Made by a program: the position numbers and the translations under genes. Below, one piece after another: positions 1,864 through 22,669 of a stretch of 43,309 nt of DNA. The DNA lies in NCBI GenBank assembly GCA_033764315.1, contig JANRJA010000154.1, positions 1-43,309 on the forward strand, given 5' to 3'. The notes below the pieces were generated by a model, which was not told the DNA's origin, ran no database searches, and worked only from the letters and a program-made list of their open reading frames with translations. Within the stretch, counting starts at the first letter, position 1, and every line of letters begins with the position of its first letter. The DNA comes from Oculatellaceae cyanobacterium bins.114. Its GTDB lineage: Bacteria; Cyanobacteriota; Cyanobacteriia; Elainellales; Elainellaceae.

Positions 1864-3366
1864 CTAAGGCAAGCAATCCATGTAGGTGGCCATGTCCCAA
1901 TCAGTGGTTGTCGCCAAAAACTTCGCCCACTCATCCCGCTTATACCAGTCATACAGCATATACATTTCACCTGGCATGGCCGATTTAATTACATCATCTG
2001 CGGCCAGACGATCGAGTGCTTCTCCTAGCGACATGGGCAACTTCTTCACCTGTTTTCCGGCTTCCATCGCCTCATACAAGTTCCGCTGTTCGGGTGCACC
2101 CGGATCCAGTTTTTGTTGAATGCCATCATCAAAGGCTTTGAGTAGGGCAGATGCCATTAGATAGGGGTTCACCATTGAGTCAACCGCGCGATATTCAAAC
2201 CGTCCGGGAGCCGAAACACGCAAGCCACAAGTCCGATTTTGATAGCCCCAATCAGCATAGACGGGTGCCCACAATCCGGTGTCCCACAAACGACGATAAG
2301 AGTTCACGGTGGAACAGCCGATCGCAGTAAGAGCAGGTAAATGCTCAATTACACCACCGATGCAATATAGCCCAGTTTGTCCTGGAATGCGGCGATCGCT
2401 TGCTCCTGGCTCTGGTAAAAAGGTATTAGTTCCCCCTTTGTAATAGGTAAAGTTTTCCTCCAGTCCAGGTAGGGTTTCTAACGCAAAGGTCTTGATCGTT
2501 TCCTCACCGCCGCCCCAGAGCGATAGGTTATGGTGACACCCAGAGGCAGAGACTCCCATAAAGGGCTTTGACATAAAACAGGCGATCAAGTTAAATTCGC
2601 GGGCGACTTGGGCACAGATTTGGCGATAGGTCGTGAGGCGATCGCTCGTCCGCAACGCATCATCAAAAGTAAAGTTGAGTTCCAACTGTCCGGGTGCGTC
2701 TTCGTGGTCACCCTGAATCATATCCAAACCCATCGCGCGGCTATATTCGATCACCCGCAAAAAGACAGGACGCAACTCCTCAAACTGGTCAATATGATAA
2801 CAGTTGGGTTTTGTCACCCCACCTGCGGGTTTGCCATCGGGGCCTTTTTTCAGCCACATCATTTCGGGTTCACAACCGTGGCGCAAGTGCAACCCGTGAG
2901 CCGTTTGAAACTCCGCATGAATGCGTTTTAGATTACCGCGACAGTCAGCCGTGAGATAGGCACCGGGGTCTATTTCCTCTTCGCGATTGCGAAAACAAGT
3001 GCAAAAAACACGGGCAACCCGCTTATCCCAGGGTAGTTGACAAAAAGTTTCAGGATCGGGGATGGCAACCAGTTCAGCCGCTTCAGGGCCATAGCCGATG
3101 TAGTTGCGATGGCGATCGATAAACAGGTTTGCCATCGAGCCATAGACCAGTTGAATTCCTTTTTCAGCGATCGCCTCCCAGTGATCAGCAGGCACCCCTT
3201 TGCCCACTACGCGCCCTGTAACCGAAATGAATTGGTAATAAATGTATTGAATGCCCAACTGATCAATCTTGGCACGCACCTGTTTGACTAACTCGGCGCG
3301 CCCTTCTGCGGTGACATACGCTTCTAAGTCAGTCAGTGTTTCAGCTTTTGTTAGAACTCCTGTCAC
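1864..3366 (-). CDS. Glutamine synthetase-like protein, probable gamma-glutamyl-amine ligase (GmaS/PuuA-like function)
   Basis: GS catalytic motifs GCEPE, HEDAPGQLE, SGCHHNLS, YRRL, NRT, RFEYRAVD. The flap reads GLWAP instead of GYEAP. GTG start with GGAGGG RBS. Confidence 0.85.
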   Translation of the reverse strand: MTGVLTKAETLTDLEAYVTAEGRAELVKQVRAKIDQLGIQYIYYQFISVTGRVVGKGVPADHWEAIAEKGIQLVYGSMANLFIDRHRNYIGYGPEAAELVAIPDPETFCQLPWDKRVARVFCTCFRNREEEIDPGAYLTADCRGNLKRIHAEFQTAHGLHLRHGCEPEMMWLKKGPDGKPAGGVTKPNCYHIDQFEELRPVFLRVIEYSRAMGLDMIQGDHEDAPGQLELNFTFDDALRTSDRLTTYRQICAQVAREFNLIACFMSKPFMGVSASGCHHNLSLWGGGEETIKTFALETLPGLEENFTYYKGGTNTFLPEPGASDRRIPGQTGLYCIGGVIEHLPALTAIGCSTVNSYRRLWDTGLWAPVYADWGYQNRTCGLRVSAPGRFEYRAVDSMVNPYLMASALLKAFDDGIQQKLDPGAPEQRNLYEAMEAGKQVKKLPMSLGEALDRLAADDVIKSAMPGEMYMLYDWYKRDEWAKFLATTTDWDMATYMDCLP

Positions 3367-3405: not shown

Positions 3406-3438
3406 AAATTGTTATATCAAGTTTGTATCCGTTAATAC
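3406..3438 (-). promoter_or_regulatory. Operator palindrome copy (AAATTGTTATATCAAGTT) plus adjacent NtcA box (GTA-N8-TAC)
   Basis: 3409-3420 TTGTTATATCAA is 1 mismatch from TTGTTATAACAA; 3425-3438 is GTATCCGTTAATAC. Both lie 40-70 bp upstream of the GS-like start and overlap the 3' end of the SBP gene. No clean -10 at the canonical spacing. Confidence 0.6.
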
Positions 3439-4173
3439 GGGTTGCTTGATTTCCTCTACAAACGGAAATGGCTTCCAGGGAATCCATCGTTCCCATAGTG
3501 TTGCAACCGTGCCATTGGCAATCAATGCATTGAGAGCCGATTCGATCGCTTGATGCAGAGCGACATTACCCTTTTGCACACCAATTCCAAACGGAACTCG
3601 GGTCGGCACCTCAAACGCCATTCGTAAACTCGCGTCTTCTTCTGCTGCAACGACTAATACCAACTCATCATCAATCAGGGCATCAATCTCCCCGTTTCGC
3701 AGTGCCTCTAGCATTTCAGGCAACACTTTGTCGCTGCCGGGATAGGGAACAACGGTGACACCGGGAAACGTGGCGGCGAGTGCCAGGTTGGTGCTATCTG
3801 CCAACCCTCCCACTCGCAAGCCAGCCAGATCTGCGGCTGACTGCACCGGACTCTCGACTTTGACTAATACCGACTCATCAAACAGCCCATAGGGGCGAGT
3901 AAAGTCAACCCACTGTTGCCGCTCTGGAGTGATGGCTTGATTAAACCACACCACATCGTAGTGACCTGTTTGCATAGAGGAATAAAACTTCTCCATGCGG
4001 GTGTTGTGCCAAATTGGTTCTAACCCTAGTTTTTGGCATACGAGGCGAGCTAGCTCTGGCTCATAACCCGATCGCTGTCCTTGCTCGACATAGGTCATAG
4101 GACGAGCATCAAAATCGCTAGCAACAATATGCAAATAGCCCGTTTCAACCGTTGAAAACGCTTGAGTGTTCAT
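3412..4173 (-). CDS. Polar amino acid-type (family 3) solute-binding protein, no signal peptide
   Basis: GYEPELARLVCQKLGL, AITPERQQWVDFTRPY, DLAGLRVG, L.NGEIDA, FGIGVQKGN..L...I..AL motifs. In-frame TGA 9 codons upstream of the ATG. Confidence 0.85.
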   Translation of the reverse strand: MNTQAFSTVETGYLHIVASDFDARPMTYVEQGQRSGYEPELARLVCQKLGLEPIWHNTRMEKFYSSMQTGHYDVVWFNQAITPERQQWVDFTRPYGLFDESVLVKVESPVQSAADLAGLRVGGLADSTNLALAATFPGVTVVPYPGSDKVLPEMLEALRNGEIDALIDDELVLVVAAEEDASLRMAFEVPTRVPFGIGVQKGNVALHQAIESALNALIANGTVATLWERWIPWKPFPFVEEIKQPVLTDTNLI

Positions 4174-4390: not shown

Positions 4391-5296
4391 ATGGAATATC
4401 AACCCATTGATCTAACAGATGCACAACTTCAACAGTTTCAAGAAGATGGCTTTTTGATTCTGGAAAACTTTTTGCCCAAAGAATTGCCAGAAATATTAAT
4501 CGATCGAATGGGGCGTTTATTTTATGGAGAGTTTGAAACCGGAATCTATCCTGATGAATGGTATTGGCGACCTGGATTAAGTTTGCCCGACGTAACGCGA
4601 GAGATCTGTAATGCCTGGAAGTGTGATTTGGCGATCGCCAGTTTGGTGTTATCCGCTGAGATTGGTCGGCTTAGTGCCACCTTAGCTGGCTGGGAAGGAG
4701 CACGCATTGGACAAGACAGCATGTGGATGAAACCACCCCTCGCCAGTGCGATCGCCATGCATCAAGATGGTGCTTACATTGACTATCTAACTCCATCCCA
4801 GATGATGACCTGTTGGATTGCCTTAAACAATGCCACTGCTGCCGATGGCACGTTGGTCTATGCCAGAGGTTCCCATAAATGGGATTTAATTAACGTCGCG
4901 GGTGAGTTTCATGCCCCCACAAAAGACTATCGCTGGGCAATGCTGCAAGCCGCCGAAAAAGCGGGTGTTGATGAGCCAGAGATCGTGGTGGTAGAAGTGC
5001 CTGCGGGGGGATGCGCCTTTCATCATGGACGCACCTGGCATGGACTCTGCAAAACCACTCGTACCGAAGGCGTGTTCCACAGCATTGGCTTACATACGAT
5101 TCCCTCCAATGCTCAGTTTCACCCCACTAACAAAGCGGGTTATATCTATGGACGCTATAAGCGAGTCAACGATGTGGTGATGGATGAGAGTTTTTTCCCC
5201 ATTTTGTGGACAAAGGAGGGGTATCGATCGCCCTTTTTAGCAGATTATTGCAAGGATGCTTTGACTCCCAGCCTACTGGTATCTGGCGTACGTTAA
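4391..5296 (+). CDS. PhyH-family Fe(II)/2-oxoglutarate dioxygenase
   Basis: QF.EDGFLILENFL start, MHQD (HxD), TCWIALNNAT..DG.L....GSHKW, VPAGG..FHHG.TWHG. Confidence 0.88.
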   Translation: MEYQPIDLTDAQLQQFQEDGFLILENFLPKELPEILIDRMGRLFYGEFETGIYPDEWYWRPGLSLPDVTREICNAWKCDLAIASLVLSAEIGRLSATLAGWEGARIGQDSMWMKPPLASAIAMHQDGAYIDYLTPSQMMTCWIALNNATAADGTLVYARGSHKWDLINVAGEFHAPTKDYRWAMLQAAEKAGVDEPEIVVVEVPAGGCAFHHGRTWHGLCKTTRTEGVFHSIGLHTIPSNAQFHPTNKAGYIYGRYKRVNDVVMDESFFPILWTKEGYRSPFLADYCKDALTPSLLVSGVR

Positions 5297-5527: not shown

Positions 5528-5932
5528 TTATCTCATCCGACGCCCTTTACGAGCTCCTCTCCGTTTAGCGGTACGCCCTTTCGACCCTCCACCCAAACCG
5601 ACTAACCCTAATAGGGCAAGTGGTTGCCAGGTTGAGCGTTCAGAGCGAATTTCTTGAGAATGGCGAGGGTTAATCGCTTCACGGCGATCGGCCTGTGGGT
5701 TTAACAGTCCCATCACTGATGCAAACCCCGCCACTAGCAATAGCCCTATAGCTTTGACATCAGGTGACTTAGAAGATGTCTGAGTCATCCCAAAGGATGC
5801 ATAGAAAAAGTAGATTGTGATTAGCGCACTGATGATTAACAAAACGGTAATCATCGTCGGATTATTGGCGAAGGTATAGATGGGTCCTTCAGCACTAGAA
5901 AACTCTTCAAAGGTCGAAAATGGACTTGTCAT
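5528..5932 (-). CDS. Small membrane protein co-transcribed with amt
   Basis: Starts 10 bp after the amt stop; 2-3 hydrophobic segments and a basic C-tail. Confidence 0.75.
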   Translation of the reverse strand: MTSPFSTFEEFSSAEGPIYTFANNPTMITVLLIISALITIYFFYASFGMTQTSSKSPDVKAIGLLLVAGFASVMGLLNPQADRREAINPRHSQEIRSERSTWQPLALLGLVGLGGGSKGRTAKRRGARKGRRMR

Positions 5933-5941: not shown

Positions 5942-7351
5942 TTACTCCGTTGCAAGCTCAGGTGAACCGATGGCAGTAGGTTGCGCTGATTTGCCCTTAG
6001 AACCTCCGGTCACAAAGGACATCGTGGCGTATTCTGGATAGCCTTCAACCCCTAAATCAGAGAGATCCAATCCAGTGATTTCTTCTTCATAAGGAACCCG
6101 CAACAGATTGAATTTCTTCAACAACCAACTTGTGCCATATCCAGGAATAAACCCTAAGAGAACAGTGCAAACTAAAGCACCGACAATTTGACCCACTAAG
6201 TTAATAGAAGGAATGCCATCGCCTTGAGGGAAGCCAGCCGCTGCAATACCCACGACGACAGAGCCAAATAAGCCACAGAAACCATGAACCCCAACCGCAC
6301 CCACGGCATCGTCGATACCCAATTTTTCAATCGCAAGGATCACTTTAGGCATACAGAAGGAGGCAATAAATGCTAGGACAATCACTAAAGCGGGGTGATA
6401 CACATCCATGCCTGCCCCAGTAGCAATAATGCCTGCCAGACCACCGGAAATGGTGAAGAATGGATCACTCTTGGAAGAGATGTATGCACCGACCAAACCA
6501 GCTGCCAGGGCAAGCGTTGTGCTCACTCCAATCGAAGCTAGCGTCATTGGCGTGCCATAGATCGTAAACTCTCCGGTATAACCCGGCAAGAAGATTAAGC
6601 ACGCGGCTAAAAATGCATAGAACCCGACAAAGATAAGCATCAGTCCCACCATAGTGAGCGGCAGGTTGTGAGGCAGAATCGGTCTAGGCTTACCATTGGC
6701 ATCATACTTGCCAATTCTGGGTCCGAGATTGAGCAACACACCCAACGTAAAGAAACCAGAGACTCCGTGGACGACCGCAGCGCACCCAAAATCGTGATAG
6801 CCCAACTGGGTAAACATCCAACCAAAAACGTTCCATCCCCAAGCGGCGGCAACAACCCAGGTAAATGACCCTAGGACAATTGACATAATCAAATAGGCAC
6901 CCACTTTGACCCGTTCGATCAGTGCACCCGACAAGATGGATGCAGTGGTCATTGCAAACAATGCAAAGGCAAAGAAGAAAACGCCTGTAATGTGATCAGC
7001 CGTATTTGGCCCCAACGCTGGTGACCAGGGATAGGAGGTCTCAACATAGGGCATGGCAGCCGCAACGGCTTCGCTCGCTTCTGGATTAGTCCAGGGTCCT
7101 AAAATGCCCCCCACAAATGGGAACAGAGGGAAGGCATTGTAGACCCACCAACCAAAAAAGAAAAATGCCAAACCGACACTCGCCAGGGTTAATAGGTTCT
7201 TCACCATAGTGGCGAGAACATTCTTAGTTCGGGAAGCTCCGCCTTCATACGCTAGAAAACCAGCGTGGATCAAAATCATGAAGACAGAAGCCCAGTAATA
7301 GAAACTTTCCGAGACAAATGTTCCTAGAAATTCTTGTGCTTCGGGAGACAT
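5942..7351 (-). CDS. amt: Amt-family ammonium/methylammonium transporter (divergent type)
   Basis: GF..YEGG.SR.KNV, SGALIERVK, DFGCAAVVH, LGPRIGKY, PHNLP, DDAVGAVGVHG with both pore His conserved; about 11 TM segments. Confidence 0.93.
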   Translation of the reverse strand: MSPEAQEFLGTFVSESFYYWASVFMILIHAGFLAYEGGASRTKNVLATMVKNLLTLASVGLAFFFFGWWVYNAFPLFPFVGGILGPWTNPEASEAVAAAMPYVETSYPWSPALGPNTADHITGVFFFAFALFAMTTASILSGALIERVKVGAYLIMSIVLGSFTWVVAAAWGWNVFGWMFTQLGYHDFGCAAVVHGVSGFFTLGVLLNLGPRIGKYDANGKPRPILPHNLPLTMVGLMLIFVGFYAFLAACLIFLPGYTGEFTIYGTPMTLASIGVSTTLALAAGLVGAYISSKSDPFFTISGGLAGIIATGAGMDVYHPALVIVLAFIASFCMPKVILAIEKLGIDDAVGAVGVHGFCGLFGSVVVGIAAAGFPQGDGIPSINLVGQIVGALVCTVLLGFIPGYGTSWLLKKFNLLRVPYEEEITGLDLSDLGVEGYPEYATMSFVTGGSKGKSAQPTAIGSPELATE

Positions 7352-7661
7352 GGCTTAATGCAAAGGGTATTGCGATCAGAAGTTTGCAGTTGAACTCAAT
7401 CAAAGGGGGACTCGATAACAGTCTGGACAATTTTGATCAAACAGAGATTCAACAGAAATGAGACATTTGAGAGCGATCGCGACAAAAGCCAATATGACGT
7501 CCTCAACAATCTCTTGCAAATGCAGTTTTCACCAAAATGCTTGCCCAAACTGTACCCAAAACTCCGCTAGATTCCGACTAAAAACTATATTTAGCGGAAA
7601 TCTATGAGAATGATAGAGAACCTTTGATATCAAAAATCAGACACGAATTAAAGATGAAGCA

Positions 7662-7703
7662 AATATAAAATTGACTTGTTATAACAAATGTATTCTAATT
7701 AAC
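7662..7703 (-). promoter_or_regulatory. NtcA-type class II promoter for amt with embedded perfect operator TTGTTATAACAA
   Basis: On -: GTT-N8-TAC (7703-7690), 22 nt, TATATT (7667-7662). The palindrome at 7676-7687 lies in the spacer. Confidence 0.7.
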
Positions 7704-7899
7704 CATTTCAAATATTTCAGCAGTTTATCTTCAATCATACAAACTGCCCGTTTAGCAATGACCGTCCGACTCTAGACGCCGAGATATTATGGCTTCCCAC
7801 TGCTTTTTAAAGGCAGTAGTTTACTTTGGTAAATGGGCAGCAGATTAGTAAAGCACTCTAAAAACCCAAGCCTGCCGCCAGTACGGTTAAAAGTTTTTT

Positions 7900-9327
7900 A
7901 TGACAACAAAGATTTGGAATCAAGAAGAATATTGGGGATTGGGTTATGACTTTGACCCGCAGTGGACGTTGACTGCCGCTCAACAAACATTGCAAGCCAA
8001 ATTGATTGAGATATGTGCTACGGTTCTACGTCCCAATGCGATTGAGAGCGATCGCTCCTTGATCTATCCTCGTAAAAATTTTGAGGCACTGGCATCCCTC
8101 GGATTATTGGGATTATTTGTGCCAAAAGAATGGGGCGGATTAGGCGAAAATCACGTCTGTGCAGCCATGATTGTCGAGACAATTGCTCGCTATGGGTGTC
8201 CCAGTACAGCCATGTGCTACACCATGCATTTAGGTGCAACAGCCGCCGCTCTATTTCGAGCACACGAGAGTCCTAGTCTGCAAAACCTGTTACAGCGGCT
8301 CGATCAAGAGGTGTTAATCGGCACTCTCTCCTACTCTGACCCTGAAACTGGATCGCACTTTTGGTATCCCGTCTCCTCTAAAGCCGAGCAGATGAGTGAT
8401 TCTTGGCAGGTCTTCAAAAAAGCCTCGTGGACAACCTCAGCCGGATTCGCTGATTGGTACATTGTGCAAACCACGAGTCCGGAATTTGACGGCAATTATG
8501 CTGACCTCTCGTGCTTCTTGATCTATCGGGATGAGGTGCAAGCCGAACCCCACAAGTGGGATGCATTAGGCTTACGGGGCAATCAATCAGGCACGTTGCT
8601 GGTGGATGGTATCACCGTTCCCCTCGATCGCATGGTGGGGACTAAAGGCGACGGCACTGCCTCTAATGACGAAATTGTTGACCCGTTCTTTTTGCTCTGT
8701 TCGTCTGCGTGCTGGAATGGCATTGCAATGGGGGCGATCGATATTGCCAAACGCCATGTCACTCGCAAAAAGCACGTTGATGTGGGTATGCGCGTTGCTG
8801 ACTATCCAACGATCCAAGATTACTTTGGTGAAGCCATCATCGACACCAATGCTTGTCGCATGTTTACCCTGTCAATGGGGCAGTTAATGGATAATTTGAC
8901 CAATCATTGCGACTGGTCGATTCACGCTGACCTCAGTGCACTGCCGCGATCAACCTACTTGCCCTGGTATTGGCAAATCAAGTTTGCAGCCGCTAAAAAT
9001 GTGGCACATGTTTGTGACAAAATGCTGCATGCCTGCGGTGGATCGGGCTTTAAAAAAGATATGGAGATCGAACGCTATCTGCGGGATGGCAAAGCGGGTT
9101 GGGTTATGGGTCCCACTAATGAAGTGTTGCGGCAGTTTGTGGGCAAGCTAGCCCTACTCGGATTTGATGCCCTCGACTATTGGAACCAGAACGTCAATGA
9201 GCGGGTTCTCAACAACGAAGTGAAAAAACTGGATGCTGACGGCAAACGACAACTAGCAGAACAGTTATTAGCACAAGCTGCCGCAGAAGAGGAAGCTTCT
9301 AAAACTTTAGTGAGCAGTGGGGTGTAG
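7900..9327 (+). CDS. Acyl-CoA dehydrogenase-fold flavoprotein (non-canonical; possible amine oxidoreductase/monooxygenase)
   Basis: LGLLGLFVPKEWGGLG, SYSDPETGS, K.SWTTSAGFADWY, WDALGLRGNQSG, GGSGF......ERYLRD. The usual IYEGT reads VMGPT. Confidence 0.85.
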   Translation: MTTKIWNQEEYWGLGYDFDPQWTLTAAQQTLQAKLIEICATVLRPNAIESDRSLIYPRKNFEALASLGLLGLFVPKEWGGLGENHVCAAMIVETIARYGCPSTAMCYTMHLGATAAALFRAHESPSLQNLLQRLDQEVLIGTLSYSDPETGSHFWYPVSSKAEQMSDSWQVFKKASWTTSAGFADWYIVQTTSPEFDGNYADLSCFLIYRDEVQAEPHKWDALGLRGNQSGTLLVDGITVPLDRMVGTKGDGTASNDEIVDPFFLLCSSACWNGIAMGAIDIAKRHVTRKKHVDVGMRVADYPTIQDYFGEAIIDTNACRMFTLSMGQLMDNLTNHCDWSIHADLSALPRSTYLPWYWQIKFAAAKNVAHVCDKMLHACGGSGFKKDMEIERYLRDGKAGWVMGPTNEVLRQFVGKLALLGFDALDYWNQNVNERVLNNEVKKLDADGKRQLAEQLLAQAAAEEEASKTLVSSGV

Positions 9328-9433
9328 GGTAGGGATGATGCAGTGTGCAACACTATTAATTTTATCTCTGCACACTGGATCACTCTCGCAGTATCATTAG
9401 CCATCACCGATCGCATAGATATCAGGAGAGAGT

Positions 9434-10231
9434 ATGACCGAAGCAACCGTCGGAACTCTAGTGTCGCTGTGGCGTTATCCTGTGAAGTCAATGATGGGGG
9501 AAGAATTGAATGCCTCTGTTATCACAGAAGAAGGCTTGTTGGGCGATCGCACCTATGCCTTGATTGACAATCATGGTAAAACTGTCAGTGCCAAATCTCC
9601 GCGCAAGTGGGGCAAGATGTTTGACTGTAGAGCCTCTCTGGAAACTCTCTCACAGGTCAAAATTACCCTGCCAGATGGCACTGTTGTGTTGAGTCATGTC
9701 GATGAGGTTGATCAGGTGCTCTCACAGGCTTTTGGGCAACTTGTCAAATTAGAGGCGATCGCCCCTGCTGAACCCAGCATTGAGATGTATACTCCCGATA
9801 TTGATGGCTTGCCCGATCAAGATCAAATCACGGATGCTGCCATTCAACCAAGCACATTTTTTGATGCCGCTACGGTGCATCTGCTTACCACTGCCACCAT
9901 GAACCAGCTTCAAACCTTAGCTCCTGGTTCTCGATTTGAGACGCGCCGTTTTCGTCCTAACCTGGTGGTGCAACCCACTAACAGCACTACTGGATTTGTT
10001 GAGAATGACTGGGTCGGCAGAACTCTGGCGATCGGCGATGAAGTTCGTCTCAGTGTGACGAGTCCCTGTCCTCGCTGTGTCATGACAACAATGGCGCAAG
10101 GCGAGCTACCCAATGATTTAAATATTCTAAAAACTGCCATGCAACACAATCAGGGCAACATTGGGATTTACGCCAGTGTGATGCAGGGTGGCACAATTCG
10201 ACGGGGAGATACTGTTACGGTTTTAGAGTGA
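9434..10231 (+). CDS. MOSC-domain molybdoprotein (YcbX/mARC-like)
   Basis: LWRYPVKSM.GE, GDR.YAL, RRFRPNLVV, PCPRCVMTT, GIYA.V..GG.IR.GD; AGGAG RBS. Confidence 0.92.
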   Translation: MTEATVGTLVSLWRYPVKSMMGEELNASVITEEGLLGDRTYALIDNHGKTVSAKSPRKWGKMFDCRASLETLSQVKITLPDGTVVLSHVDEVDQVLSQAFGQLVKLEAIAPAEPSIEMYTPDIDGLPDQDQITDAAIQPSTFFDAATVHLLTTATMNQLQTLAPGSRFETRRFRPNLVVQPTNSTTGFVENDWVGRTLAIGDEVRLSVTSPCPRCVMTTMAQGELPNDLNILKTAMQHNQGNIGIYASVMQGGTIRRGDTVTVLE

Positions 10232-10256
10232 ATTGTAGTTTTGCGATCGCTCGTCA

Positions 10257-10400
10257 GCATTGGCAACTAAAGTCGCAGCTACACGAGCAAAACCTGCCTC
10301 CGCAGGTTACAGGAAGCCTGAATTGACTTGAGCTAGCAACGGTGGACTTGGTTCTTGTAGTCGCGGTTTTAACCACCAAAAACTTCTCAGACATCCTCTA
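10257..10400. repeat. Dispersed REP/MITE-like repeat, copy 3
   Basis: Similar to 781-850 (inverted) and to the interior of the 5296-5458 element; ends ACTTCTCAGACATCCTCTA. Confidence 0.75.
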
Positions 10401-10429
10401 ACATCTGCCCTTTAACCTCTATTCTGTTT

Positions 10430-12286
10430 ATGCTTCTCGACATCAAACAACTTGACGTATTTCACCCCTCTCTTCCTAAACCGTTGGGATTGGTGGTCGC
10501 CGAGTATTGGATCGAGGGTGGAACGGCGATCGCCTACCCCGTTAAAGCAGGGCAATACGTTCAAATTTTGGATGTGGAAGGGTGTCAGTGCTCTGACCTG
10601 GTTGCTTTTACTGGAGAGCAATATGAAGAGGAACTGGATGCCACTGTTACCCGCACGCTCAATGGTTTGTCACTGCCTGTGGCAGGGTTGCATGGCAAAT
10701 ACTTCTCACAACACATGCAGCCGCTGTTAGAGGTGATTCAAGATACCTGCAATCGCCACGACAGTTTCTTTTTGGCGTGTACGGCACGTTACTACGAAGA
10801 TTTAGGCTATCCCGGTCATCCCAGTTGCAGTGACAACTTCAATCAGGTGTTGCAGCCTTACGGCATTGCTCCTCGTTTGGGGTGGAGTGCGATCAATTTT
10901 TTCTATAACACTGCCGTTGAGGAGACAGGGGCGATCGCTGGAGGTGAGTCGTGGTCACGTCCAGGTGACTACGTGTTGCTGCGTGCCCATCGCGATCTGC
11001 TCTGCGCCAGTTCCTCCTGTGCCGATGACATCGACTCTGTGAATGGCTGGAATCCAACTCCTATTTTGATTCGGGTCTATGATGCTGAAGCCGAGTTTTC
11101 AAGGGCGATCGGGCGACGAGTCTCTGCGATCGCCCCTCTACGGCTGACCCAACCCAGTGCCTTCACGCCCCGAATTCAGCAATTGACTAACAATCTGGTG
11201 GAATATAACGGCTTTTGGGTGCCCAACAGTTTCACCAATCACGGCATTCAAGATGAATATTGGGCATTGCGCGAACGAGCCGTGTTGCTTGATTTGTCGG
11301 CTCTGCGTAAGTTTGATGTGGTAGGAAAAGATGCCTTTCGTTTATTACAACTGGCTTTCTCGCGGGATGTCAGCAAACTCAACGTGGGGCAGTCGGCTTA
11401 TGGGTGTTTGCTCAATCCTCATGGAGGCATTGTCGATGATGGCATTGTGTTTTGTCTGAGGGAATCGCACTATCGCTATGTGGGCAATTGCGACAGTGAT
11501 GCTGACTGGTTGACGCGAGTTGCAGATCAACACGGCTTTGGCGTTGAGGTTCATCCCTGTAGTCATGTGCTCCACAATCTGGCAATTCAAGGGCCCTTGT
11601 CTCGACAAATTTTGCGATCGCTCACCCAGTTTGATCCGCAGTTCCAGGGATTCACCCTCGATGACCTGCCTTATTTTCACTTTGTCACTGGAACCGTTGC
11701 CAATATCCCTGTCTTGATCTCCCGTACCGGCTACACCGGAGAATTGGGCTATGAGATTTTTGTGCACCCTGACTACGGCATTGCTCTGTGGGATGCGCTG
11801 ATGACAGCAGGAGCACCCGTTGGACTGCAACCGATGGGCATGTTGGCACTCGATCGCGCCCGCATCGAAGCTGGACTGTTAGCGGCAGGACGCGAATTTG
11901 ATGACCTGACCTCGCCTTATCAAGCGGGAATCGGTTGGGCAGTGGCGATGAAAAAGCCTGATTTCATGGGTAAAGCAGCTTTAGAACAGATTCGACCCCA
12001 TCCTCCCAGGGTGACGGTTGGACTGGTGTTAGAGGGTAACGAGGTTGCTGCCGGGGGGCAGTGCATTCACCCATTGGGAGAACGTTGGCGCGTCGGCACC
12101 ATCACCAGTGGCACCTTTTCACCCATCCTCAATCGCAGCATTGCTCTGGCACAAGTCACCCCCGAATATGCTGAACTGGGAACTGTGTTAGAAGTTGGCT
12201 TGGTGGATGGCATGATTCGCCGTGTTAGAGCTACCGTTGGCACCCTTGCCGCCTATGACCCCACTAAAAGCCGAGTCCGATCATGA
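10430..12286 (+). CDS. tdm: DUF1989 + GcvT (THF-binding) protein, TMAO demethylase (Tdm)-like
   Basis: DTCNRHDSFFLAC.ARYYEDLGYPGHPSCSDNFN...WSRPGDYVLLRA..DL.C.SSSCADD followed by a GcvT domain (DLSALRKF, DDG, SRTGYTGELGYE, RIEAGL, YDP.K.R.RS). The gene symbol rests on motif recognition only. Confidence 0.8.
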   Translation: MLLDIKQLDVFHPSLPKPLGLVVAEYWIEGGTAIAYPVKAGQYVQILDVEGCQCSDLVAFTGEQYEEELDATVTRTLNGLSLPVAGLHGKYFSQHMQPLLEVIQDTCNRHDSFFLACTARYYEDLGYPGHPSCSDNFNQVLQPYGIAPRLGWSAINFFYNTAVEETGAIAGGESWSRPGDYVLLRAHRDLLCASSSCADDIDSVNGWNPTPILIRVYDAEAEFSRAIGRRVSAIAPLRLTQPSAFTPRIQQLTNNLVEYNGFWVPNSFTNHGIQDEYWALRERAVLLDLSALRKFDVVGKDAFRLLQLAFSRDVSKLNVGQSAYGCLLNPHGGIVDDGIVFCLRESHYRYVGNCDSDADWLTRVADQHGFGVEVHPCSHVLHNLAIQGPLSRQILRSLTQFDPQFQGFTLDDLPYFHFVTGTVANIPVLISRTGYTGELGYEIFVHPDYGIALWDALMTAGAPVGLQPMGMLALDRARIEAGLLAAGREFDDLTSPYQAGIGWAVAMKKPDFMGKAALEQIRPHPPRVTVGLVLEGNEVAAGGQCIHPLGERWRVGTITSGTFSPILNRSIALAQVTPEYAELGTVLEVGLVDGMIRRVRATVGTLAAYDPTKSRVRS

Positions 12287-12783
12287 GTCATCGTTCGATT
12301 TATGCCAATTTGTTGTGGGATGTCGCCGGAGTGGATGGCTTGCAGGTGATGAAGACTCTGTTTGGCGACCAGTGCGATCGCATTGCTCCGTTTCAGTCAT
12401 TTGAGGCAGAGCTAGACCACACACCTTGTTCTGTGTTGCGATTGTGTGAGGGCAACTTTCGGATTCGTTGGGCGGGCGATGCCGATCACCTCAAGTCGAT
12501 GCTATATTCCGTGACCACCGATCAGCGAGTTTGGGTCAAACAGTTTCCCTGGCTGGTATCAGTCCAGTTGCCTCACACCTTAGACACGGTGAAATTGTCT
12601 CAAATGGCGATCGCCAAACTTCCCTTTTCGCTGACATCCCTTGCGCTTAACTGTGCTGCTCCTGCCCGTATCGAAACCCTATCTGTCCTGGTTTGGCGAC
12701 ACACGCTGCAAACCACTGAAACCCTGGAACTCCACACCGCAAGAAAATCCCTCGAAATGCTAGAACACAGTTTAGCCCTGTGA
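12283..12783 (+). CDS. Sarcosine oxidase gamma / GcvT N-terminal-like small protein
   Basis: Start overlaps the tdm stop (ATGA). WDVAG.D...VM..LFG...F....L....CSVLRLCE.NFRI resembles the folate-binding fold; the assignment is tentative. Confidence 0.55.
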   Translation: MSHRSIYANLLWDVAGVDGLQVMKTLFGDQCDRIAPFQSFEAELDHTPCSVLRLCEGNFRIRWAGDADHLKSMLYSVTTDQRVWVKQFPWLVSVQLPHTLDTVKLSQMAIAKLPFSLTSLALNCAAPARIETLSVLVWRHTLQTTETLELHTARKSLEMLEHSLAL

Positions 12784-12810
12784 AGCCATGCGCTTTGGGG
12801 CGATCGCTCT

Positions 12811-13248
12811 TTAGGTAGAAAACTTTTGGTTCTGACAATTTCGCATCAAAGCTTGAAATCCAGCTTGCACAAAATGCTTGTCATAGGCAAGAGCCTCTGC
12901 AATTGCCTGTTTTTCCATAACCTTAAAAGAGACACAATCAGTCTGGCTCCATTCCTTGTCAGGTCGCTGTTTATACAGGGTGAGTGCAGCTTGAAATTGC
13001 AAACTGGTTTGAGGAATGATGGTTGTATTGGGATGTTGATATAGCTTTTCGATTAGATTAACTGCAACTTTTCGGAAGAAATCACCGCGATCGCTAAAAT
13101 CATTCAATACTTCAGTCAAAACCATTTCAGTTGTAACGATATGAGCAGGTTGAATGTTTTGAGAGAGTTGCTGTGCTTTTGTGTGTAAGTCATCACGAGG
13201 ATTCATTAATGCAACCCAGTAACCCGTATCTGCAAATACAACTCTCAT
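12811..13248 (-). CDS. vapC: PIN-domain toxin (VapC family)
   Basis: VFADTGYWVAL...D..H, TTEMVLTE, S.TDC.SF..M...I.EAL.YDKHF.QAGF. Confidence 0.9.
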   Translation of the reverse strand: MRVVFADTGYWVALMNPRDDLHTKAQQLSQNIQPAHIVTTEMVLTEVLNDFSDRGDFFRKVAVNLIEKLYQHPNTTIIPQTSLQFQAALTLYKQRPDKEWSQTDCVSFKVMEKQAIAEALAYDKHFVQAGFQALMRNCQNQKFST

Positions 13249-13577
13249 TCGTCATTCCGTTGTTTTTGATAAGTATCAAAGTTTCTGGCGAGGTCAGTCG
13301 GCAATTTAGCCCATTCTTCATCGGGAACTTGAGCAGAAATTTCGGCAACTAATTCCCAAATTGGTTGAGCATCTGAGTCAAACAGCAATTGATTCGTTAC
13401 TGGTTCGCTCAATGAAGGAGTTTCAAATTGAGTCAGTGGGTCATTTGCCGTTTTGGTGTCTGACTCTTCCAATAAAACAATTAAGCGTATCCGACCCGGA
13501 TGAGACACCTGTAATGGTTGATCTAGCGTTAGTCGCCCTGTAGGGTCGATTGTTCCAGTGACTTCAAAGGCTTGCAT
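13245..13577 (-). CDS. Putative antitoxin partner of VapC
   Basis: 4-bp overlap with vapC. MQAFEVTGTID..G.L.LD.PL N-terminus and PIWE....I...VP.EEW.KLPTDLA.N.D.Y C-terminus are typical of cyanobacterial TA-associated proteins. Confidence 0.7.
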   Translation of the reverse strand: MQAFEVTGTIDPTGRLTLDQPLQVSHPGRIRLIVLLEESDTKTANDPLTQFETPSLSEPVTNQLLFDSDAQPIWELVAEISAQVPDEEWAKLPTDLARNFDTYQKQRNDE

Positions 13578-13652
13578 AGGGTTCTCAAAAGAAAAGAGAT
13601 ATCAGAATTCTAGCAAGGGGCGATCGCTCTTTAATATCGATTCGCTCATCCC

Positions 13653-13685
13653 AGATCCCCGGAATCTTGAAGCTTCCGGGGATCT
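13653..13685. repeat. AGATCCCCGG hairpin repeat
   Basis: AGATCCCCGGAA-tcttgaagc-TTCCGGGGATCT inverted repeat. Confidence 0.7.
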
Positions 13686-13722
13686 AGAACCCGTCAATTT
13701 AAGATCACGGTCGGAGCGAAAG

Positions 13723-14085
13723 TCATCGCGCAAGACAGAACCAAAGAACAAAGACCCATGTTTTTAAAGCGTCTCCCCAATGGGCAACTGCACCATCAAG
13801 ATCCTCATCTATTTTGCTTTGAACTTCTGCCTGTTTTAATTCATCGGGTGAGTAAACCTGGAAGAATATTGAATCATCCCGAAATAATCCATCACACTTG
13901 CGATCGCCAATCTTTCCATAAGGACGAACTCGTATGAATCCGGGTTTAGCCCATACCATAATGTCTTCAAAGAGTCCTTGAAAGGCATCACCCAGTCCTT
14001 CAAGGCACCGAAGCTTGAATTCCTTATAGTGCTCGTAAGTGGTAAGGTCGTATTCGTTAGGTTTGCTCTCTGAAGATTCACTCAT
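13723..14085 (-). pseudogene. Truncated PD-(D/E)xK restriction-endonuclease-like domain (ABC-3C-type effector N-terminus)
   Basis: G.AFQ.LFEDIM......F..VRPYG..GD.KCDG.......FQVYSP......KI.ED..GA..HW.....WVFV, then an unrelated tail and stop at 120 aa. Confidence 0.55.
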
Positions 14086-14213
14086 ATCAGCATAGTAATG
14101 AGTTAGCTCATTTGTTTAGAGGCTAATGTTCTAGCCCCTTTTCTACCTACAACGAGTATTTTAGCGATTTCAAGCAGCGATCGCCCTCTGACCCTCATCA
14201 TTCGCCTTTTGAT

Positions 14214-14420
14214 CTCTGAACTCCAACCTTTTTATTCCAACCTCCGACCTCTGAACTCGGAACCTCGACCTCTGAACTTCAACCTCCGACTTCTGAACCC
14301 GGAACCTCGACCTCTGAGCTCCAACCTCCGACCTCTGAGCTCCAACCGTCGACCTCTGAACTCCAACCGTCGACCTCTGAACTCCAAACTTCGAGCATTT
14401 TGCCCCAACCGTCGAGTTCT
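14214..14420. repeat. Heptamer-based tandem repeat (21-bp higher-order unit)
   Basis: About 9 degenerate units such as CTCTGAA-CTCCAAC-CGTCGAC; STRR-like. Confidence 0.85.
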
Positions 14421-14480
14421 AATCCCAATTTAACCCACAACGATTACAGATCATTAGAACCAATGCGAAGCGCGTCTTTG

Positions 14481-14612
14481 GGGTGAACCGAAACACCGTC
14501 TGCCAGAGGGTTTGGGGGAGGCAGTGACGTCCCTCAATGGGGGTTTGGGAGAGACTCCCCAATGCCTGGTTTTCACATTTGGGTGAATTGAAACACCGTC
14601 TGCTAGAGGGTT
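14481..14612. repeat. 32-bp direct repeat, two copies 100 bp apart
   Basis: GGGTGAACCGAAACACCGTCTGCCAGAGGGTT (14481) vs GGGTGAATTGAAACACCGTCTGCTAGAGGGTT (14581), flanking a GGGGGTTTGGGAGAGACTCCCCAA hairpin. Confidence 0.75.
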
Positions 14613-14738
14613 CAGGAGCACCCCAGAAAAAAGCCTTCAGTGGTGGGTTTTATCTTTTAACAGAGGGATGTCAAAGAGTTGAGTTAAGCTAGATCAGGAC
14701 TTATTGTCAGCTCAGTCACACGTCCCTGAACCAATTCA

Positions 14739-15464
14739 ATGCAACTTCCCCTCCACCTGATCATCTCAGAACAACTTCGGGAGCAAATTACAAACGGTGA
14801 GTTTCAACCAGGAGCACAACTCCCCAGCGAACATCAATTGATGTCTGATTTTGACGTTAGCCGCATCACCGTTAGACGAGCGATCGCCAATTTGGTTAAT
14901 CAGGGCTTAGTTTCATCCCATCGAGGCAAAGGAGTCTTTGTTAAAGAACAACGCAAAGTAACCTATTCACTCTCTAGCCCGATGGTCTTTTTTGAAGAAG
15001 ACATGACACGACAAGGAGTGACCAGTTCGATTCAAAATTTAGTCTTTGAAGCTGTGATTGCACCTGCCGAAGTACAACAAAAATTACAACTTACTTCTCA
15101 TCAAAAAACAGTTTATTTACAGAAAAAATTATTGTTGTTAGATGATACTCCCGTTGGGGTTGACATCACTTACATTACTGCGGATTTAGGAAAACAATAT
15201 GCAGATGATTTACAACAGCAAATGACATTTCCCACATTAGAACAACATGGTGTTTTTATTGAACGAGTTGAAGCCGTGTTGGGATGCACACGTGCAGATT
15301 ATGAAACAAGTGAATATTTAGATGTGCCATTAGGTGATCCGTTGTTAGTCTATAGTCACACGGCTTACACCATTGATAACCGTCCGATTGTTTGTGGAGA
15401 AGCTCTCTCCAGGGGCGATCGCCTGTGTTACTCCATCAATCTTTTAAAGCAAGACACAGTTTAA
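14739..15464 (+). CDS. GntR-family regulator, HutC/UTRA subfamily
   Basis: PG.QLPSE.QL...F.VSR.TVRRA...L...GL.....GKG.FV wHTH plus a UTRA-like C-terminal domain; 241 aa. Confidence 0.93.
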   Translation: MQLPLHLIISEQLREQITNGEFQPGAQLPSEHQLMSDFDVSRITVRRAIANLVNQGLVSSHRGKGVFVKEQRKVTYSLSSPMVFFEEDMTRQGVTSSIQNLVFEAVIAPAEVQQKLQLTSHQKTVYLQKKLLLLDDTPVGVDITYITADLGKQYADDLQQQMTFPTLEQHGVFIERVEAVLGCTRADYETSEYLDVPLGDPLLVYSHTAYTIDNRPIVCGEALSRGDRLCYSINLLKQDTV

Positions 15465-16738: not shown

Positions 16739-19330
16739 GTGGATGTGAGAAGACTACATAGTTATGGAGTTGCTATTGTAAGCGTCTTAGTAACACTGGT
16801 ACTGACGCTTATCCTAGAGTCTTTACTGCAACCCACAACCCTGATTCTGTTCTATTTAGTGCCACTCTTAAGTGCCTTTTATGGCGGACACAAATCGGGG
16901 TTGCTCTCTGTCATATTGACGGGTTTGGTCAGTCGATATTTCTTCTTTGAACCTCAATACAGCCTTGCAGTGCCAGATATGGCTACTGGTTTGAGGTTAT
17001 CTGTGTTTGTTTTGGTGTTGTGGCTCATTAATTTTGTGAGTGCCTCGTTGCGTGATGCCAAGCGGCAAGCCGAAAAAAATTTATATCAATTACGCACGAG
17101 TGAAGAACACTTGCAATACGTTAAAGAAAGATTTGAACTGGCGACATCAACCGTTAAGGGATTGGTATATGAATGGAATTCTAAAACCAACTTAATTGAA
17201 CGCACTCCAGGATTAGTGGATTTAATCGGTTATCAGCTAGAGGAGGCAGATCCGACCCCCGAATGGTGGTATCAACAGGTGCATCCTGATGACCAAGTTT
17301 ATTTACGTCAGGCTAATCAAACAGCCATTGCTAGCGGTGATACTGGCTTTACGCTGGAATATCGAGTTCGTCATCGCAATGGACACTATCGATATGTGTG
17401 GGATCGAGCCCGCATTGAACGCGATCGCCACGGCAACCCTATTCGTGTGATTGGCTTTAATCTGGATATTACCGATCGCAAATGTGTCGAAGATGCATTG
17501 CGCGAGAGTGAAGAACGCTTTCGGACAATGGCCGATACGGCTCCTATGTTGGTGTGGATGTCAGGAGTTGATAAACGCTGCACTTATTTCAACAAAACCT
17601 GGCTTGATTTTACAGGACGCACCTTAGAGCAAGAAAACGGCAATGGCTGGCTAGAAGGGGTTCACCCAGAGGATTATCACTCTTGTCTAGCCACCTATGA
17701 AACGGCGTTTGATGCTCGACAACCTTTTTCAAGAGATTATCGCTTGCGGCGACACGATGGCGACTATCGCTGGGTGCTCGATCAGGGGGTGCCTCGCCTG
17801 ACACCCGATGGTGAGTTTTTAGGCTTTATCGGTAGCTGCGTTGATATTAGCGATCGCAAGTATATCGAAGAAACTCAACGCTATTTAGCAGAAGTTAGCG
17901 ACGTTCTGAGTAGTTCGCTTAATTATGAAGAAACTCTTACCAGTGTTGCCCGCTTAACTGTTCCTCACTTAGCAGATTGGTGTACGGTACATATTCGGGA
18001 AGAAGATGGAACGGTAAAACCTTTGGCGATCGCCCATGTCAATCCCGAAAAAATGGCATGGGCAAAGGAACTGAACCAACAGTATCCATTTGATCCACAC
18101 CAATCGCATGGGGTGGCTGAAGTCATGCGGAGTGGGCAACCCAAACTCTATCCTTATATCTCAGATGCACTGTTAGAGGATTTAGCTTGCGATGCTAAAC
18201 ATCTCAACGTGTTGCGCGAAGTGGGGTTTAGGTCAGCGATGATTGTGCCTCTAGCCACGCAAGAGCAAATCTTGGGAGCTATCTCATTTATCTACGCCGA
18301 GTCAGAACGACACTATAGTCAGCCAGATTTAGTTCTAGCGGTCGAGCTGGCACGTCGAGCCACATTAGCGGTTGAAAATGCACGTCTCTATCGAAATGCT
18401 CAGTCCGATCGCACTAAAGCCGAAGCGGCTAACCGGAGTAAAGATGAGTTTTTGGCAACGCTGTCTCACGAGTTGCGTACCCCTCTGAATGCTATGTTGG
18501 GGTGGATGCAACTCCTCAACCACCGTCAACTAGATGAGCCAACCGAAAAAAGGGCATTAGAAACGGTGCTCCGCAACACCAGAGTGCTCAAAACGATTAT
18601 TGAAGACTTGTTGGATGTCTCTCGTGTAACGAGTGGTAAACTCCAACTCAATATCCGCCCCATCGACTTGGCATCAGTGGTCGAAGCAGCGATCGAGGCG
18701 GTGCGCCCAGCGGCGATCGCCAAACAGATTCAGTTGCACCTCACCCTGGCAGACCTGTCGTCTGACCCCGTTGATCTCAACTCCAACCCATCTGCAACTC
18801 TAACCTCGACCTATCACGCATCGGATGACTCTAGCTCGTCGCCCTATCAAGTCATGGGGGATCCCGATCGATTACAGCAAGTCGTTTGGAATCTGCTATC
18901 TAACGCCGTTAAATTCACAGATCAAGGCGGACACATTAACGTTAAAGTGTCTACTGTTAAAGGCCAATCCCCTGTGGGGAGCAGCAAAGGCTTGTTGCCT
19001 GACAAAGAGCCGTTAACCTATGTTCAAATTCAAGTGATTGACACAGGCGTGGGCATTAGTCCTGACTTCTTGCCCTATATCTTCGAGCGGTTTCGCCAAG
19101 CCGACATGAGCATTACTAAAATTCACGGTGGTTTGGGGCTAGGACTGGCGATCGTCCGCCATTTAGTCGAGATGCACGGTGGCACCGTTTTTGCTGATAG
19201 CGAAGGGATTGGCAAAGGAACCACTTTCACCGTTCAGTTGCCTCTGCGATCGCCCCAATACCAAAAGCAGAGCAACTTTAACGCAGAACTCAAGCAACAC
19301 CAACCTTCAACGGCTCCCATTGAAGGTTGA
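16739..19330 (+). CDS. Membrane sensor histidine kinase (DUF4118-PAS-PAS-GAF-HisKA-HATPase)
   Basis: 4 N-terminal TM segments, two PAS/PAC (VHPDD, VHPED), [39 protein letters not shown]; no receiver domain. Confidence 0.92.
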
Positions 19331-19431
19331 GGAAGCCGCGATCAAAAACGTTAACGAATTTGTAGCAATTTTCCTCTATTCATAACTTTCGAGGATAGAA
19401 TGCGGGCTACTGAATTCTAAGGAAATTCACC

Positions 19432-20709
19432 ATGACTGAACTCGTGCGCTTCCGTCGAGAGGGCTGGAAACCCGTAGCATCACACCGCGAAGATCGAGGC
19501 ATTGTTAAAGTCGTTTGGCTGCAAGGTACTCCCTATGAGATGGGATACCAACACGGCAAACTATTGCACGAAGAAATTGATTCATTGCCCAGAAGTACAC
19601 TCGATGCCGTTAGCTTTTTAGGCAAGCATTTAGGATTGGCGAGTTTTGCTAAAAAGCGGTGTTTTAATGATGTGATCGAGGAATGTGAGGGGTTAGTAGC
19701 CGGAGCAAAAGGTACGGGTCTAACTATGAGTGTGGCCTTGGTTTTTGCCTTTGGAGATGTGTTTCAAGAGTATTTTGCTAATACCCTACCTCGCATCTTT
19801 AATGATGGTGCAGGGTTTCCCCAAGGGGTGTTTAACGATGTCGCCTGCTCTCAATTTATCGCATCGGGTAAAGCAACCACAGATGGTCGCCTCTATCACG
19901 GTCGCAGTTTAGATAATAATGGCAAACCCAACGAATATTGGTTAAAAAATCCAACCGTATTTGTTCGACAGCCCAATAATGGCATTCCCCATATGTTTAT
20001 TGCTGTTCCGGGGGTGGTATGGCCTAACTCTGGGATGAATGCCTCAGGCATTACGCTTGCGCTTGATACGGCTCATCCTAAAAACATTACAAAACTAGCC
20101 ACAACTGGACGTAGCCATGTGCAAATGATGGCTCAAATCTTAAAACAGGCAAACAGCTATGAAGAAGCCCGTGCGTTTATGCAATCTCAACGACGCATGG
20201 CAGCAGACTTAATTTTGATTGCCGATGGCATCTCTCGTAAGGCAGGTGTGTTTGAGCTAATCGCTCGCTCGATGGGCATCCGAGAAATGGGAGCCAATGG
20301 GGTGTTATATATGGCTAACCACTTTGTGTCGCCAGAGATGCAGGGAGAAGATCGCGATCCTCCCAGTCGATCGAGTCTGATTCGCCATGAGCGGTTTAAA
20401 CAATTGCTAGAACCAGGTGGTCCTCATTCTCGCCACGGCAAGATTAACCCAGCGGTGATGATTCAGATTTTGCGCGATCGCATCAATCCTTTTACGCTCA
20501 ATGAAAGCCCATCCACCATATATGATGACAACGCCAGCATTGCTACCAATGGGGTGGTGCGTCAGGTGGTGTTTGATTCGCAGCGATTGTTGTTTTGGTT
20601 GGCTACGGGGGAGGTGCCCATTCCCAAAAATCCGTTTGTTGGTTTTTCATTGGGGGAAATGCTCAATTTGCCTAACGCTGTTCCCTGTCAACCTTTGGTT
20701 TATCAATAG
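19432..20709 (+). CDS. Peptidase C45 family Ntn-hydrolase/acyltransferase
   Basis: L.GTPYEMGYQHG, autocleavage site A|CSQF, YHGRSLD, SGMN.SG, NHF, S..R..R; AAGGA RBS. Confidence 0.85.
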   Translation: MTELVRFRREGWKPVASHREDRGIVKVVWLQGTPYEMGYQHGKLLHEEIDSLPRSTLDAVSFLGKHLGLASFAKKRCFNDVIEECEGLVAGAKGTGLTMSVALVFAFGDVFQEYFANTLPRIFNDGAGFPQGVFNDVACSQFIASGKATTDGRLYHGRSLDNNGKPNEYWLKNPTVFVRQPNNGIPHMFIAVPGVVWPNSGMNASGITLALDTAHPKNITKLATTGRSHVQMMAQILKQANSYEEARAFMQSQRRMAADLILIADGISRKAGVFELIARSMGIREMGANGVLYMANHFVSPEMQGEDRDPPSRSSLIRHERFKQLLEPGGPHSRHGKINPAVMIQILRDRINPFTLNESPSTIYDDNASIATNGVVRQVVFDSQRLLFWLATGEVPIPKNPFVGFSLGEMLNLPNAVPCQPLVYQ

Positions 20710-20729
20710 ATTCCAGATTGGGTTTGCTG

Positions 20730-20940: not shown

Positions 20941-21053
20941 CTTTAGCGAATGGACATAAAAGACGATGAGAGTCAGGGTTATGTTTTCGAGTTGGGGGTG
21001 CGGCTTTGCTAGACAACCTGTGATGTCGCTAGACAACCATTCATACCAGACGT

Positions 21054-22637: not shown

Positions 22638-22669
22638 AGGTGTTTCCAGCAAATAGTCGGGAAAACCAA

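Follow-up and report, generated by a model that had tools for sequence, protein, structure and literature searches.

A short trimethylamine N-oxide demethylase-like gene and its coupled T-protein-like partner gene in filamentous cyanobacteria

The stretch of DNA analysed here (the window) comprises 43,309 nucleotides of Oculatellaceae cyanobacterium bins.114 (assembly GCA_033764315.1, contig JANRJA010000154.1, positions 1 to 43,309). It carries a gene for a 618-aa protein related to the trimethylamine N-oxide (TMAO) demethylase Tdm, in which a DUF1989 domain with a three-cysteine zinc site is fused to a folate-binding GcvT domain, and this gene runs directly into a second one encoding a protein of 166 aa. 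A preliminary description of the sequence had regarded the larger protein as a compact but active Tdm. The features concerned are the following.

10430..12286, + strand: short Tdm-type demethylase, 618 aa, with DUF1989 zinc core and GcvT folate domain (open reading frame, Pfam, PDB, NCBIfam and alignment)
10511..11002, + strand: DUF1989 catalytic core, residues 28-191 (Pfam; residues mapped to the Paracoccus enzyme through the 9Q59 and 9Q5A alignments)
11171..12259, + strand: GcvT folate-binding domain and C-terminal barrel, residues 248-610 (Pfam; Paracoccus folate-site residues mapped through 9Q59)
12283..12783, + strand: partner gene, 166 aa, with a half-GcvT fold like that of T-protein and SoxG, proposed second subunit (AlphaFold2, Foldseek, VIA-align and co-location)

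The 618-aa protein has the Pfam domains DUF1989 (PF09347, residues 28-191; E-value: 2e-44), GCV_T (PF01571, residues 248-504; E-value: 2.3e-67) and GCV_T_C (PF08669, residues 527-610). The TMAO demethylase of Paracoccus (793 aa), which has been solved by cryo-electron microscopy (PDB 9Q59), can be aligned over its residues 178-787 with residues 14-618 of the protein (E-value: 5.5e-173), and residues 6-618 match positions 147-763 of the 763 positions of NCBIfam NF053776, the equivalog model for Tdm of the Methylocella silvestris type. The core domain also matches the stand-alone DUF1989 structure 3oru by sequence (E-value: 3.9e-16), and the AlphaFold2 model of the whole protein matches both T-proteins and the DUF1989 structure 3siy by fold (template modelling [TM] score of 0.73, normalised to the target).

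According to PMC13619132, the zinc ligands of the Paracoccus enzyme are C285, C301 and C365, the residues that hold TMAO or its products are D220, F327 and D367, and the tetrahydrofolate (THF) site is formed by R480, F582, F672 and K782. In the 9Q59 alignment the zinc ligands correspond to C117, C133 and C197 of the 618-aa protein (C197 lying just past the Pfam DUF1989 envelope), the substrate and product residues to D56, Y159 and D199, and the folate residues to R312, F416, W503 (W replacing F) and K613 (which falls slightly outside the Pfam envelope). The assignment of D56 and D199 is pinned by the D220A/D367A mutant chain 9Q5A. The zinc cysteines are invariant both in an alignment of five short and four long forms (9/9) and in 47 of 47 short forms. 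In the alignment of nine, D56 and D199 are also invariant and position 159 is Y or F; R312, F416, W503 and K613 do not vary among the 47 short forms, in which position 159 (Y/F) is the only mapped zinc, substrate or folate position that varies.

The residues named in the preliminary description (H110, F113, C117, H130, C133, Y159, W175 and C197) occur at the positions given there, with the correct spacing C117-x15-C133-x63-C197. In the comparison with Methylocella Tdm, the numbering C263/C279/C343 for zinc, together with H276, agrees with PMC12560246, and the offset of 146 holds for these residues. D198 of Methylocella corresponds to D56 at an offset of 142, owing to a 4-residue indel in the 9Q59 alignment. 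All nine aligned sequences have H110 and F113, and eight of them have W175. The Methylocella counterparts of H110, F113, W175 and Y159 would be H256, F259, W321 and Y305, respectively. As judged from the alignments, the spacing pattern reflects homology rather than chance. The alignments support a close relative of Tdm with intact catalytic and folate-site residues and, because the zinc, substrate and folate residues are conserved, the chemistry of the known enzyme is very probably kept in the 618-aa protein.

The protein lacks the 146 to 170 or so N-terminal residues of long Tdm forms, which correspond to residues 1-158 of the Paracoccus enzyme (a DUF1989-like domain and an interfacial segment). 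The absence of about 145 residues had been suspected beforehand, and the NF053776 match, beginning at position 147, bears this out. Upstream of its start codon the frame stays open for no more than 19 codons. The same architecture recurs throughout the relatives of the protein. The best 120 database relatives are 597-720 aa long, and every one named to an organism is cyanobacterial. Of 16 loci found in genomes, the 14 from cyanobacteria all have open frames of 579-677 aa, the shortest of which (L012) ends at a contig edge within the gene. All 17 complete cyanobacterial orthologues examined, the present one included, are short, so that the short N-terminus, once a question about this gene alone, proves to be common to its cyanobacterial homologues. 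Long forms were found elsewhere: 807 aa at an Amycolatopsis locus, 812 aa at a Rhodospirillales locus (L021), and, on plasmids, 789 aa as annotated in Rhizobium (open frame of 801 aa) and 781 aa as annotated in Acinetobacter (open frame of 785 aa).

Evenly drawn genome samples give the same division. Matches were found in 4 of 401 cyanobacterial genomes, starting at profile positions 123-148 in all four, and in 24 of 401 genomes from the phylum of the Rhodospirillales locus, where all 26 matches start at positions 4-15. In the phylum of Amycolatopsis 10 of 301 genomes have a match; eight of these start at positions 7-14 and the other two at 71 and 97, in open frames of 835 and 731 aa. The preliminary description was thus correct in placing the gene outside the Proteobacteria, but this is not special to it. 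In a tree of 40 proteins computed with the N-domain columns excluded (L012 left out), a single branch separates the 17 short from the 23 long forms (SH-aLRT support of 100, length of 0.63). The tree is unrooted, there being no outgroup of the same architecture, and is equally compatible with loss and gain of the N-domain. Short forms are 46-50% identical to long forms, and 47 short forms are 67-84% identical to one another with the frame intact. The short form is therefore a clade-wide architecture and not a local truncation.

This architecture bears on how the protein could function. In PMC12560246 (Cappa et al.), the N-terminal DUF1989-like domain is called ubiquitous in Tdm homologues. In PMC13619132, deletion of residues 1-150 of Paracoccus TDM gave no soluble protein, and the N-domain is regarded as indispensable for a soluble, assembled enzyme. 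As the N-terminal segments are absent from the cyanobacterial proteins, something else would have to keep these proteins soluble and assembled.

A candidate is the product of the adjoining gene. The start codon of the partner gene overlaps the stop codon of the demethylase gene (ATGA). The partner lies directly downstream in 13 of the 14 cyanobacterial loci, the 14th (L012) being the one that ends at a contig edge, and likewise in three further sample genomes, which with the window makes 17 of 17 complete loci. Start and stop overlap in 15 of these 17 (13 ATGA, 1 GTGA and 1 TTGA). The four loci with long forms (L019, L021, L023 and L024) yielded no partner gene. The partner has 87 relatives in a database clustered at 90%, of which all named ones are cyanobacterial. 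Cultured cyanobacteria named as sources of relatives include Leptolyngbya sp. FACHB-261, Leptolyngbya ohadii, Stenomitos frigidus, Oculatella sp. LEGE 06141, Oscillatoria sp. FACHB-1407 and Nodosilinea sp. LEGE 07088. A profile built from 56 partners gave 65 matches among 1.84 billion representative proteins; all but two are in proteins of at most 223 aa, the exceptions being repetitive multi-stretch hits in proteins of 1211 and 545 aa, and none lies in a protein of Tdm length. In the sample of 401 cyanobacterial genomes the partner profile matched six: the four carriers of the short gene and two others, G011 and G002. In G011 the cluster is decayed (L026:5875-6354 and 10299-11053), and what is left of the pair is a 159-aa open frame in which the end of the demethylase runs into the start of the partner. 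The acyl-CoA-dehydrogenase (ACAD)-fold gene of that cluster survives only as fragments; the adjoining Amt and MOSC genes are intact.

The partner has no sequence match in Pfam, NCBIfam or PDB. Its AlphaFold2 model is confident (predicted local distance difference test [pLDDT] score of 93.8) and superposes on residues 44-212 of T-protein (VIA-align; Z 15.2, root-mean-square deviation 2.3 A over 161 residues). Foldseek matches it to the SoxG chains 2gag_C (E-value: 7.9e-05) and 1vrq_C (E-value: 1.4e-04), with TM scores of 0.54-0.59 normalised to the target, and nearby Atlas clusters bear SoxG and GCV_T labels (scores of 0.89-0.90). None of the 56 family members matches the Pfam SoxG family (PF04268) at E-values up to 10, and nine of the 56 match Pfam GCV_T weakly (best E-value: 0.0056). 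Judging from the model, the partner amounts to half a T-protein and in this is comparable to SoxG. The predicted structure lacks the C-terminal barrel and roughly one half of the folate-binding cloverleaf, so the partner alone is unlikely to bind folate. The idea that it might be a relocated N-domain was rejected: its T-protein fold is confident, and none of the DUF1989 structures (3ORU, 3SIY, 3DI4) is among the matches listed. Since 9Q59 is not among the Foldseek matches of either model, this comparison was made with those structures and not directly with the Paracoccus N-domain.

The two genes lie in a larger cluster, the remaining members of which are listed below, together with a gene found in two sister clusters.

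1864..3366, - strand: glutamine-synthetase-like ligase, 500 aa, candidate gamma-glutamyl-(methyl)amine synthetase (NCBIfam)
3412..4173, - strand: SBP_bac_3-type solute-binding-like protein, conserved member (family matches and recurrence in relatives)
4391..5296, + strand: PhyH-family Fe(II)/2-oxoglutarate dioxygenase, conserved member (Pfam; 5 loci and 2 more)
5528..5932, - strand: conserved 134-aa protein adjoining the transporter (no Pfam or NCBIfam match; in 7 loci)
5942..7351, - strand: Amt-family transporter of the ammonium/methylammonium type, conserved member (Pfam and NCBIfam; 9 loci and 2 more)
7900..9327, + strand: ACAD-fold flavoprotein, 475 aa, candidate amine N-oxygenase (Pfam; NCBIfam below every equivalog cut-off; PDB matches)
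9434..10231, + strand: MOSC-domain protein, 265 aa, variable cluster member between flavoprotein and demethylase (Pfam MOSC_N and MOSC)
14739..15464, + strand: GntR/UTRA regulator (family matches; 5 loci; directly after the partner in several relatives)
L028:12308-13642 and L029:8486-9856: flavin-containing monooxygenase (FMO) of the trimethylamine monooxygenase (Tmm) type beside short Tdm and partner

The ACAD-fold flavoprotein is 81-90% identical in 11 cyanobacterial loci, where it lies directly upstream and where no FMO is present. In the clusters of genomes G017 and G200 there is no ACAD-fold gene, and an FMO adjoins the short gene and its partner instead. This FMO is 61% identical to the Tmm-type gene beside Acinetobacter tdm and matches a trimethylamine monooxygenase, PDB 6kbw (E-value: 8e-190); FMOs of this type are also found in the vicinity of the long genes in Amycolatopsis, Rhizobium and Acinetobacter. 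Altogether, the ACAD-fold gene occurs in 12 clusters (that of the window included), the FMO in two, and the two together in none of the loci examined; at one locus (L027, genome G158) neither was found within the 16 kb examined. Because the two neighbours are mutually exclusive, the ACAD-fold protein is marked as a candidate replacement of Tmm, and the pattern suggests that it could be a non-orthologous one. That a Tmm-type FMO can lie beside the pair speaks for TMAO as substrate of the short form.

Among the other neighbours, the ligase is 80-82% identical in five relatives (L016, L017, L022, L028 and L029). Its best NCBIfam matches are type III glutamine synthetase and gamma-glutamylputrescine synthetase, both below their cut-offs. 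Ligase and PhyH dioxygenase travel with the demethylase pair in at least five relatives. Speculatively, this pairing would suit a route in which methylamine is gamma-glutamylated and the product then oxidatively demethylated to glutamine. The MOSC gene is also present in L009 and L026, and the edge of L010 holds a fragment of it.

It is probable, on the homology and gene arrangement described above, that 10430-12286 and 12283-12783 encode a two-subunit variant of TMAO demethylase within a cluster for scavenging nitrogen from methylated amines. The pathway envisaged would run as follows. TMAO would bind through its oxygen to the Cys3-Zn site (C117, C133 and C197), flanked by D56, Y159 and D199, and would be split into dimethylamine and formaldehyde. 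The formaldehyde would be transferred to tetrahydrofolate in the fused GcvT domain (R312, F416, W503 and K613), giving methylene-THF. The coupled 166-aa partner would probably take over the structural role of the N-domain, stabilising the core and perhaps closing the path of the formaldehyde. The cluster as a whole would draw nitrogen from methylated amines by means of the Amt transporter, the glutamine-synthetase-like ligase, the PhyH dioxygenase and the GntR regulator, together with either a Tmm-type monooxygenase or the ACAD-fold flavoprotein. A bolder version, which must be considered doubtful, is that the two proteins form an obligate heteromer replacing the N-domain, that the ACAD-fold protein serves as trimethylamine oxygenase, and that ligase and dioxygenase turn methylamine into glutamine by gamma-glutamylation and oxidative N-demethylation; this would constitute an undescribed cyanobacterial route to assimilable nitrogen.

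Several observations weigh against the two-subunit demethylase. The 618-aa protein scores 810.4 bits with NF053776, below the curated cut-off of 1100 bits, compared with 1010-1293 bits for the long forms from two other phyla. Its AlphaFold2 model is of moderate confidence (pLDDT of 76.4) and has low-confidence stretches, including residues 482-506 of the folate domain. The partner has evolved more rapidly than the enzyme (30-80% vs 67-84% identity), and G002 carries a lone paralogue of the partner family (31% identity) in an unrelated context. The predicted complex of demethylase and partner passes only weakly: the median ipSAE interface score is 0.34 (runs of 0.34, 0.76 and 0.18), compared with 0.00 for the best of three controls, the partner has a pLDDT of at least 85, and the three runs disagree (contacts agree in at least 0%). 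In calibration, 116 of 157 solved complexes and 2 of 215 mismatches attained the mark, and scores of at most 0.60 were obtained for only 18 of the 157 solved complexes as well as for both passing mismatches. Finally, searches with Acinetobacter queries (a single one for Tmm) found neither Tmm nor DmmA in the genome to which the window belongs (90.7% complete), so that neither a source of TMAO nor a sink for dimethylamine was found there.

The most serious alternative, although an unlikely one, is that the large protein is a self-sufficient minimal Tdm, in which two DUF1989 cores perhaps pair between subunits in place of the pairing of core and degenerate N-domain in long forms. The 166-aa protein would then have a separate role in the pathway, such as the processing of an amine or one-carbon intermediate. 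The large protein does contain all of the catalytic and folate residues, and the two N-terminal domains of the long form behave like a homodimer in one chain, according to Cappa et al. (PMC12560246). The weak complex prediction and the G002 paralogue, which has no Tdm neighbour, point the same way. However, constant adjacency and the frequent start-stop overlap are typical of subunits made in a fixed ratio, and in the decayed cluster of G011 both genes have been lost together. A self-sufficient enzyme is further made doubtful by the loss of soluble Paracoccus protein on deletion of the N-domain. The evidence thus favours a two-gene enzyme, and of the 'minimal Tdm' first proposed what stands is a Tdm relative without the N-domain; its self-sufficiency is placed in doubt by the GcvT-fold gene at every complete locus.

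Somewhat less probable still is that the same chemistry acts on another small N-oxygenated amine supplied by the ACAD-fold flavoprotein, for example dimethylamine or another tertiary amine in its N-oxide or N-hydroxy form. Such a change of substrate would be in keeping with the long branch that separates the short from all long forms, their modest identity and the score below the equivalog cut-off, with the failure to find Tmm or DmmA in the genome, and with an uncharacterised flavoprotein as the constant neighbour. In contrast, none of the positions for which contact with TMAO or its products has been reported is lost, and in two sister clusters the same pair has a canonical FMO of the Tmm type as its neighbour.

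The spacer between the MOSC and demethylase genes, 198 nt long, holds one more feature.

10255..10407, strand not assigned: copy of a dispersed repeat of about 150 nt (matches in the same genome)

The repeat has 39 further matches across contigs of the same genome and looks like a miniature mobile element. A second, partial copy lies within the window at 784-875 (- strand). No internal repeat was found in 10100-10500, no inverted repeat was detected inside the element with the settings used, and a search of 7300-15000 for riboswitches or other RNAs gave no Rfam match at E-values up to 0.1. A remnant of the N-domain upstream in another frame is ruled out, the spacer being short and mostly occupied by the repeat. 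It had been feared that the repeat had cut the gene short, leaving the frame as a decaying remnant; a dispersed repeat directly upstream and the decayed copy in G011 would suit such a history, but it is highly improbable given that start and length are shared by orthologues from several cyanobacterial families, that the frame is intact over 47 sequences (67-84% identity) with all catalytic residues invariant, and that the spacer is too small for a 146-residue domain. Orthologues without the upstream repeat start at the same place as the 618-aa protein, and the repeat is not the cause of the short N-terminus.

Other features of the window and its genome may be noted. Between the partner and the GntR regulator are two overlapping genes on the - strand (12811-13248 and 13245-13577), whose products, of 145 and 110 aa, have no match in Pfam; in appearance they resemble an inserted pair of the toxin-antitoxin kind, the first gene being PIN-like by impression only. 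An open frame at 14209-14433 (+ strand) consists of short proline- and leucine-rich repeats (approximately RPLNS/RPLSS, with variants), which suggests a tandem DNA repeat before the GntR gene. Four large PAS/GAF histidine kinases are encoded in a run at 16739-26665, and that at 22670-24541 (- strand) has an N-terminal domain like that of ethylene receptors (ETR1_N; E-value: 6.8e-43). Elsewhere in the genome there are two stand-alone DUF1989 genes of the urea-amidolyase-associated type (G000:C96:35411-36016 and 42892-43524), the second with an in-frame TAA, and, on another contig, a SoxA-like gene.

In the literature searched, on cyanobacteria with DUF1989 or Tdm and on Tdm and DUF1989 in general, no description of a cyanobacterial Tdm was found. 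As far as sampled, the two-gene Tdm is confined to a few families of filamentous cyanobacteria. The finding places the use of TMAO and methylated amines in oxygenic phototrophs, and it suggests that filamentous cyanobacteria forming mats and crusts have in methylated amines a source of nitrogen that has been overlooked. A natural clade that is without a domain held to be ubiquitous (PMC12560246) and indispensable (PMC13619132), and that has an extra small GcvT-fold gene, offers a ready test of the function of the N-domain and of the way in which the tunnel that leads formaldehyde to folate is built. A clean lead to an alternative amine oxygenase comes from the mutual exclusion of Tmm and ACAD-fold neighbours.

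The pair can be compared with several known systems. Stand-alone DUF1989 proteins (the urea-carboxylase-associated UAAP1/2; 3ORU, 3SIY and 3DI4) match the core domain by sequence and fold; unlike the 618-aa protein, they have no GcvT fusion and no known N-oxide activity. GcvT T-protein (1WOO/1WOS), whose relatives include DMGO, DMGDH, DmdA and LigM, shares its fold with the partner over the region of superposition described above, but the partner lacks the rest of the T-protein and is only about 11% identical to it.

SoxG, the gamma subunit of heterotetrameric sarcosine oxidase (2GAG/1VRQ chain C), is also small (approximately 170-200 aa) and stands alone, and its T-protein-like fold is likewise truncated. 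Both are encoded beside a large protein with a full folate domain of the GcvT type; in sarcosine oxidase this is SoxA, against whose folate domain SoxG packs. Unlike SoxG, the partner family has no PF04268 match and the partner fits true T-proteins better (Z 15.2), and its neighbours are a Tdm-type gene and a GntR regulator or other genes rather than soxA, soxB and soxD.

The closest likeness is to Tdm itself, as known from Methylocella silvestris and Paracoccus (9Q59, 9Q5L and 9Q5A). The 618-aa protein has the same fusion of a DUF1989 Cys3-Zn core to GcvT, with zinc, substrate and THF residues kept, and in two sister clusters the short form has a Tmm-type FMO as its neighbour. It differs from Tdm in having neither the N-terminal DUF1989-like domain nor the interfacial segment, and in being coupled to an additional GcvT-fold gene.

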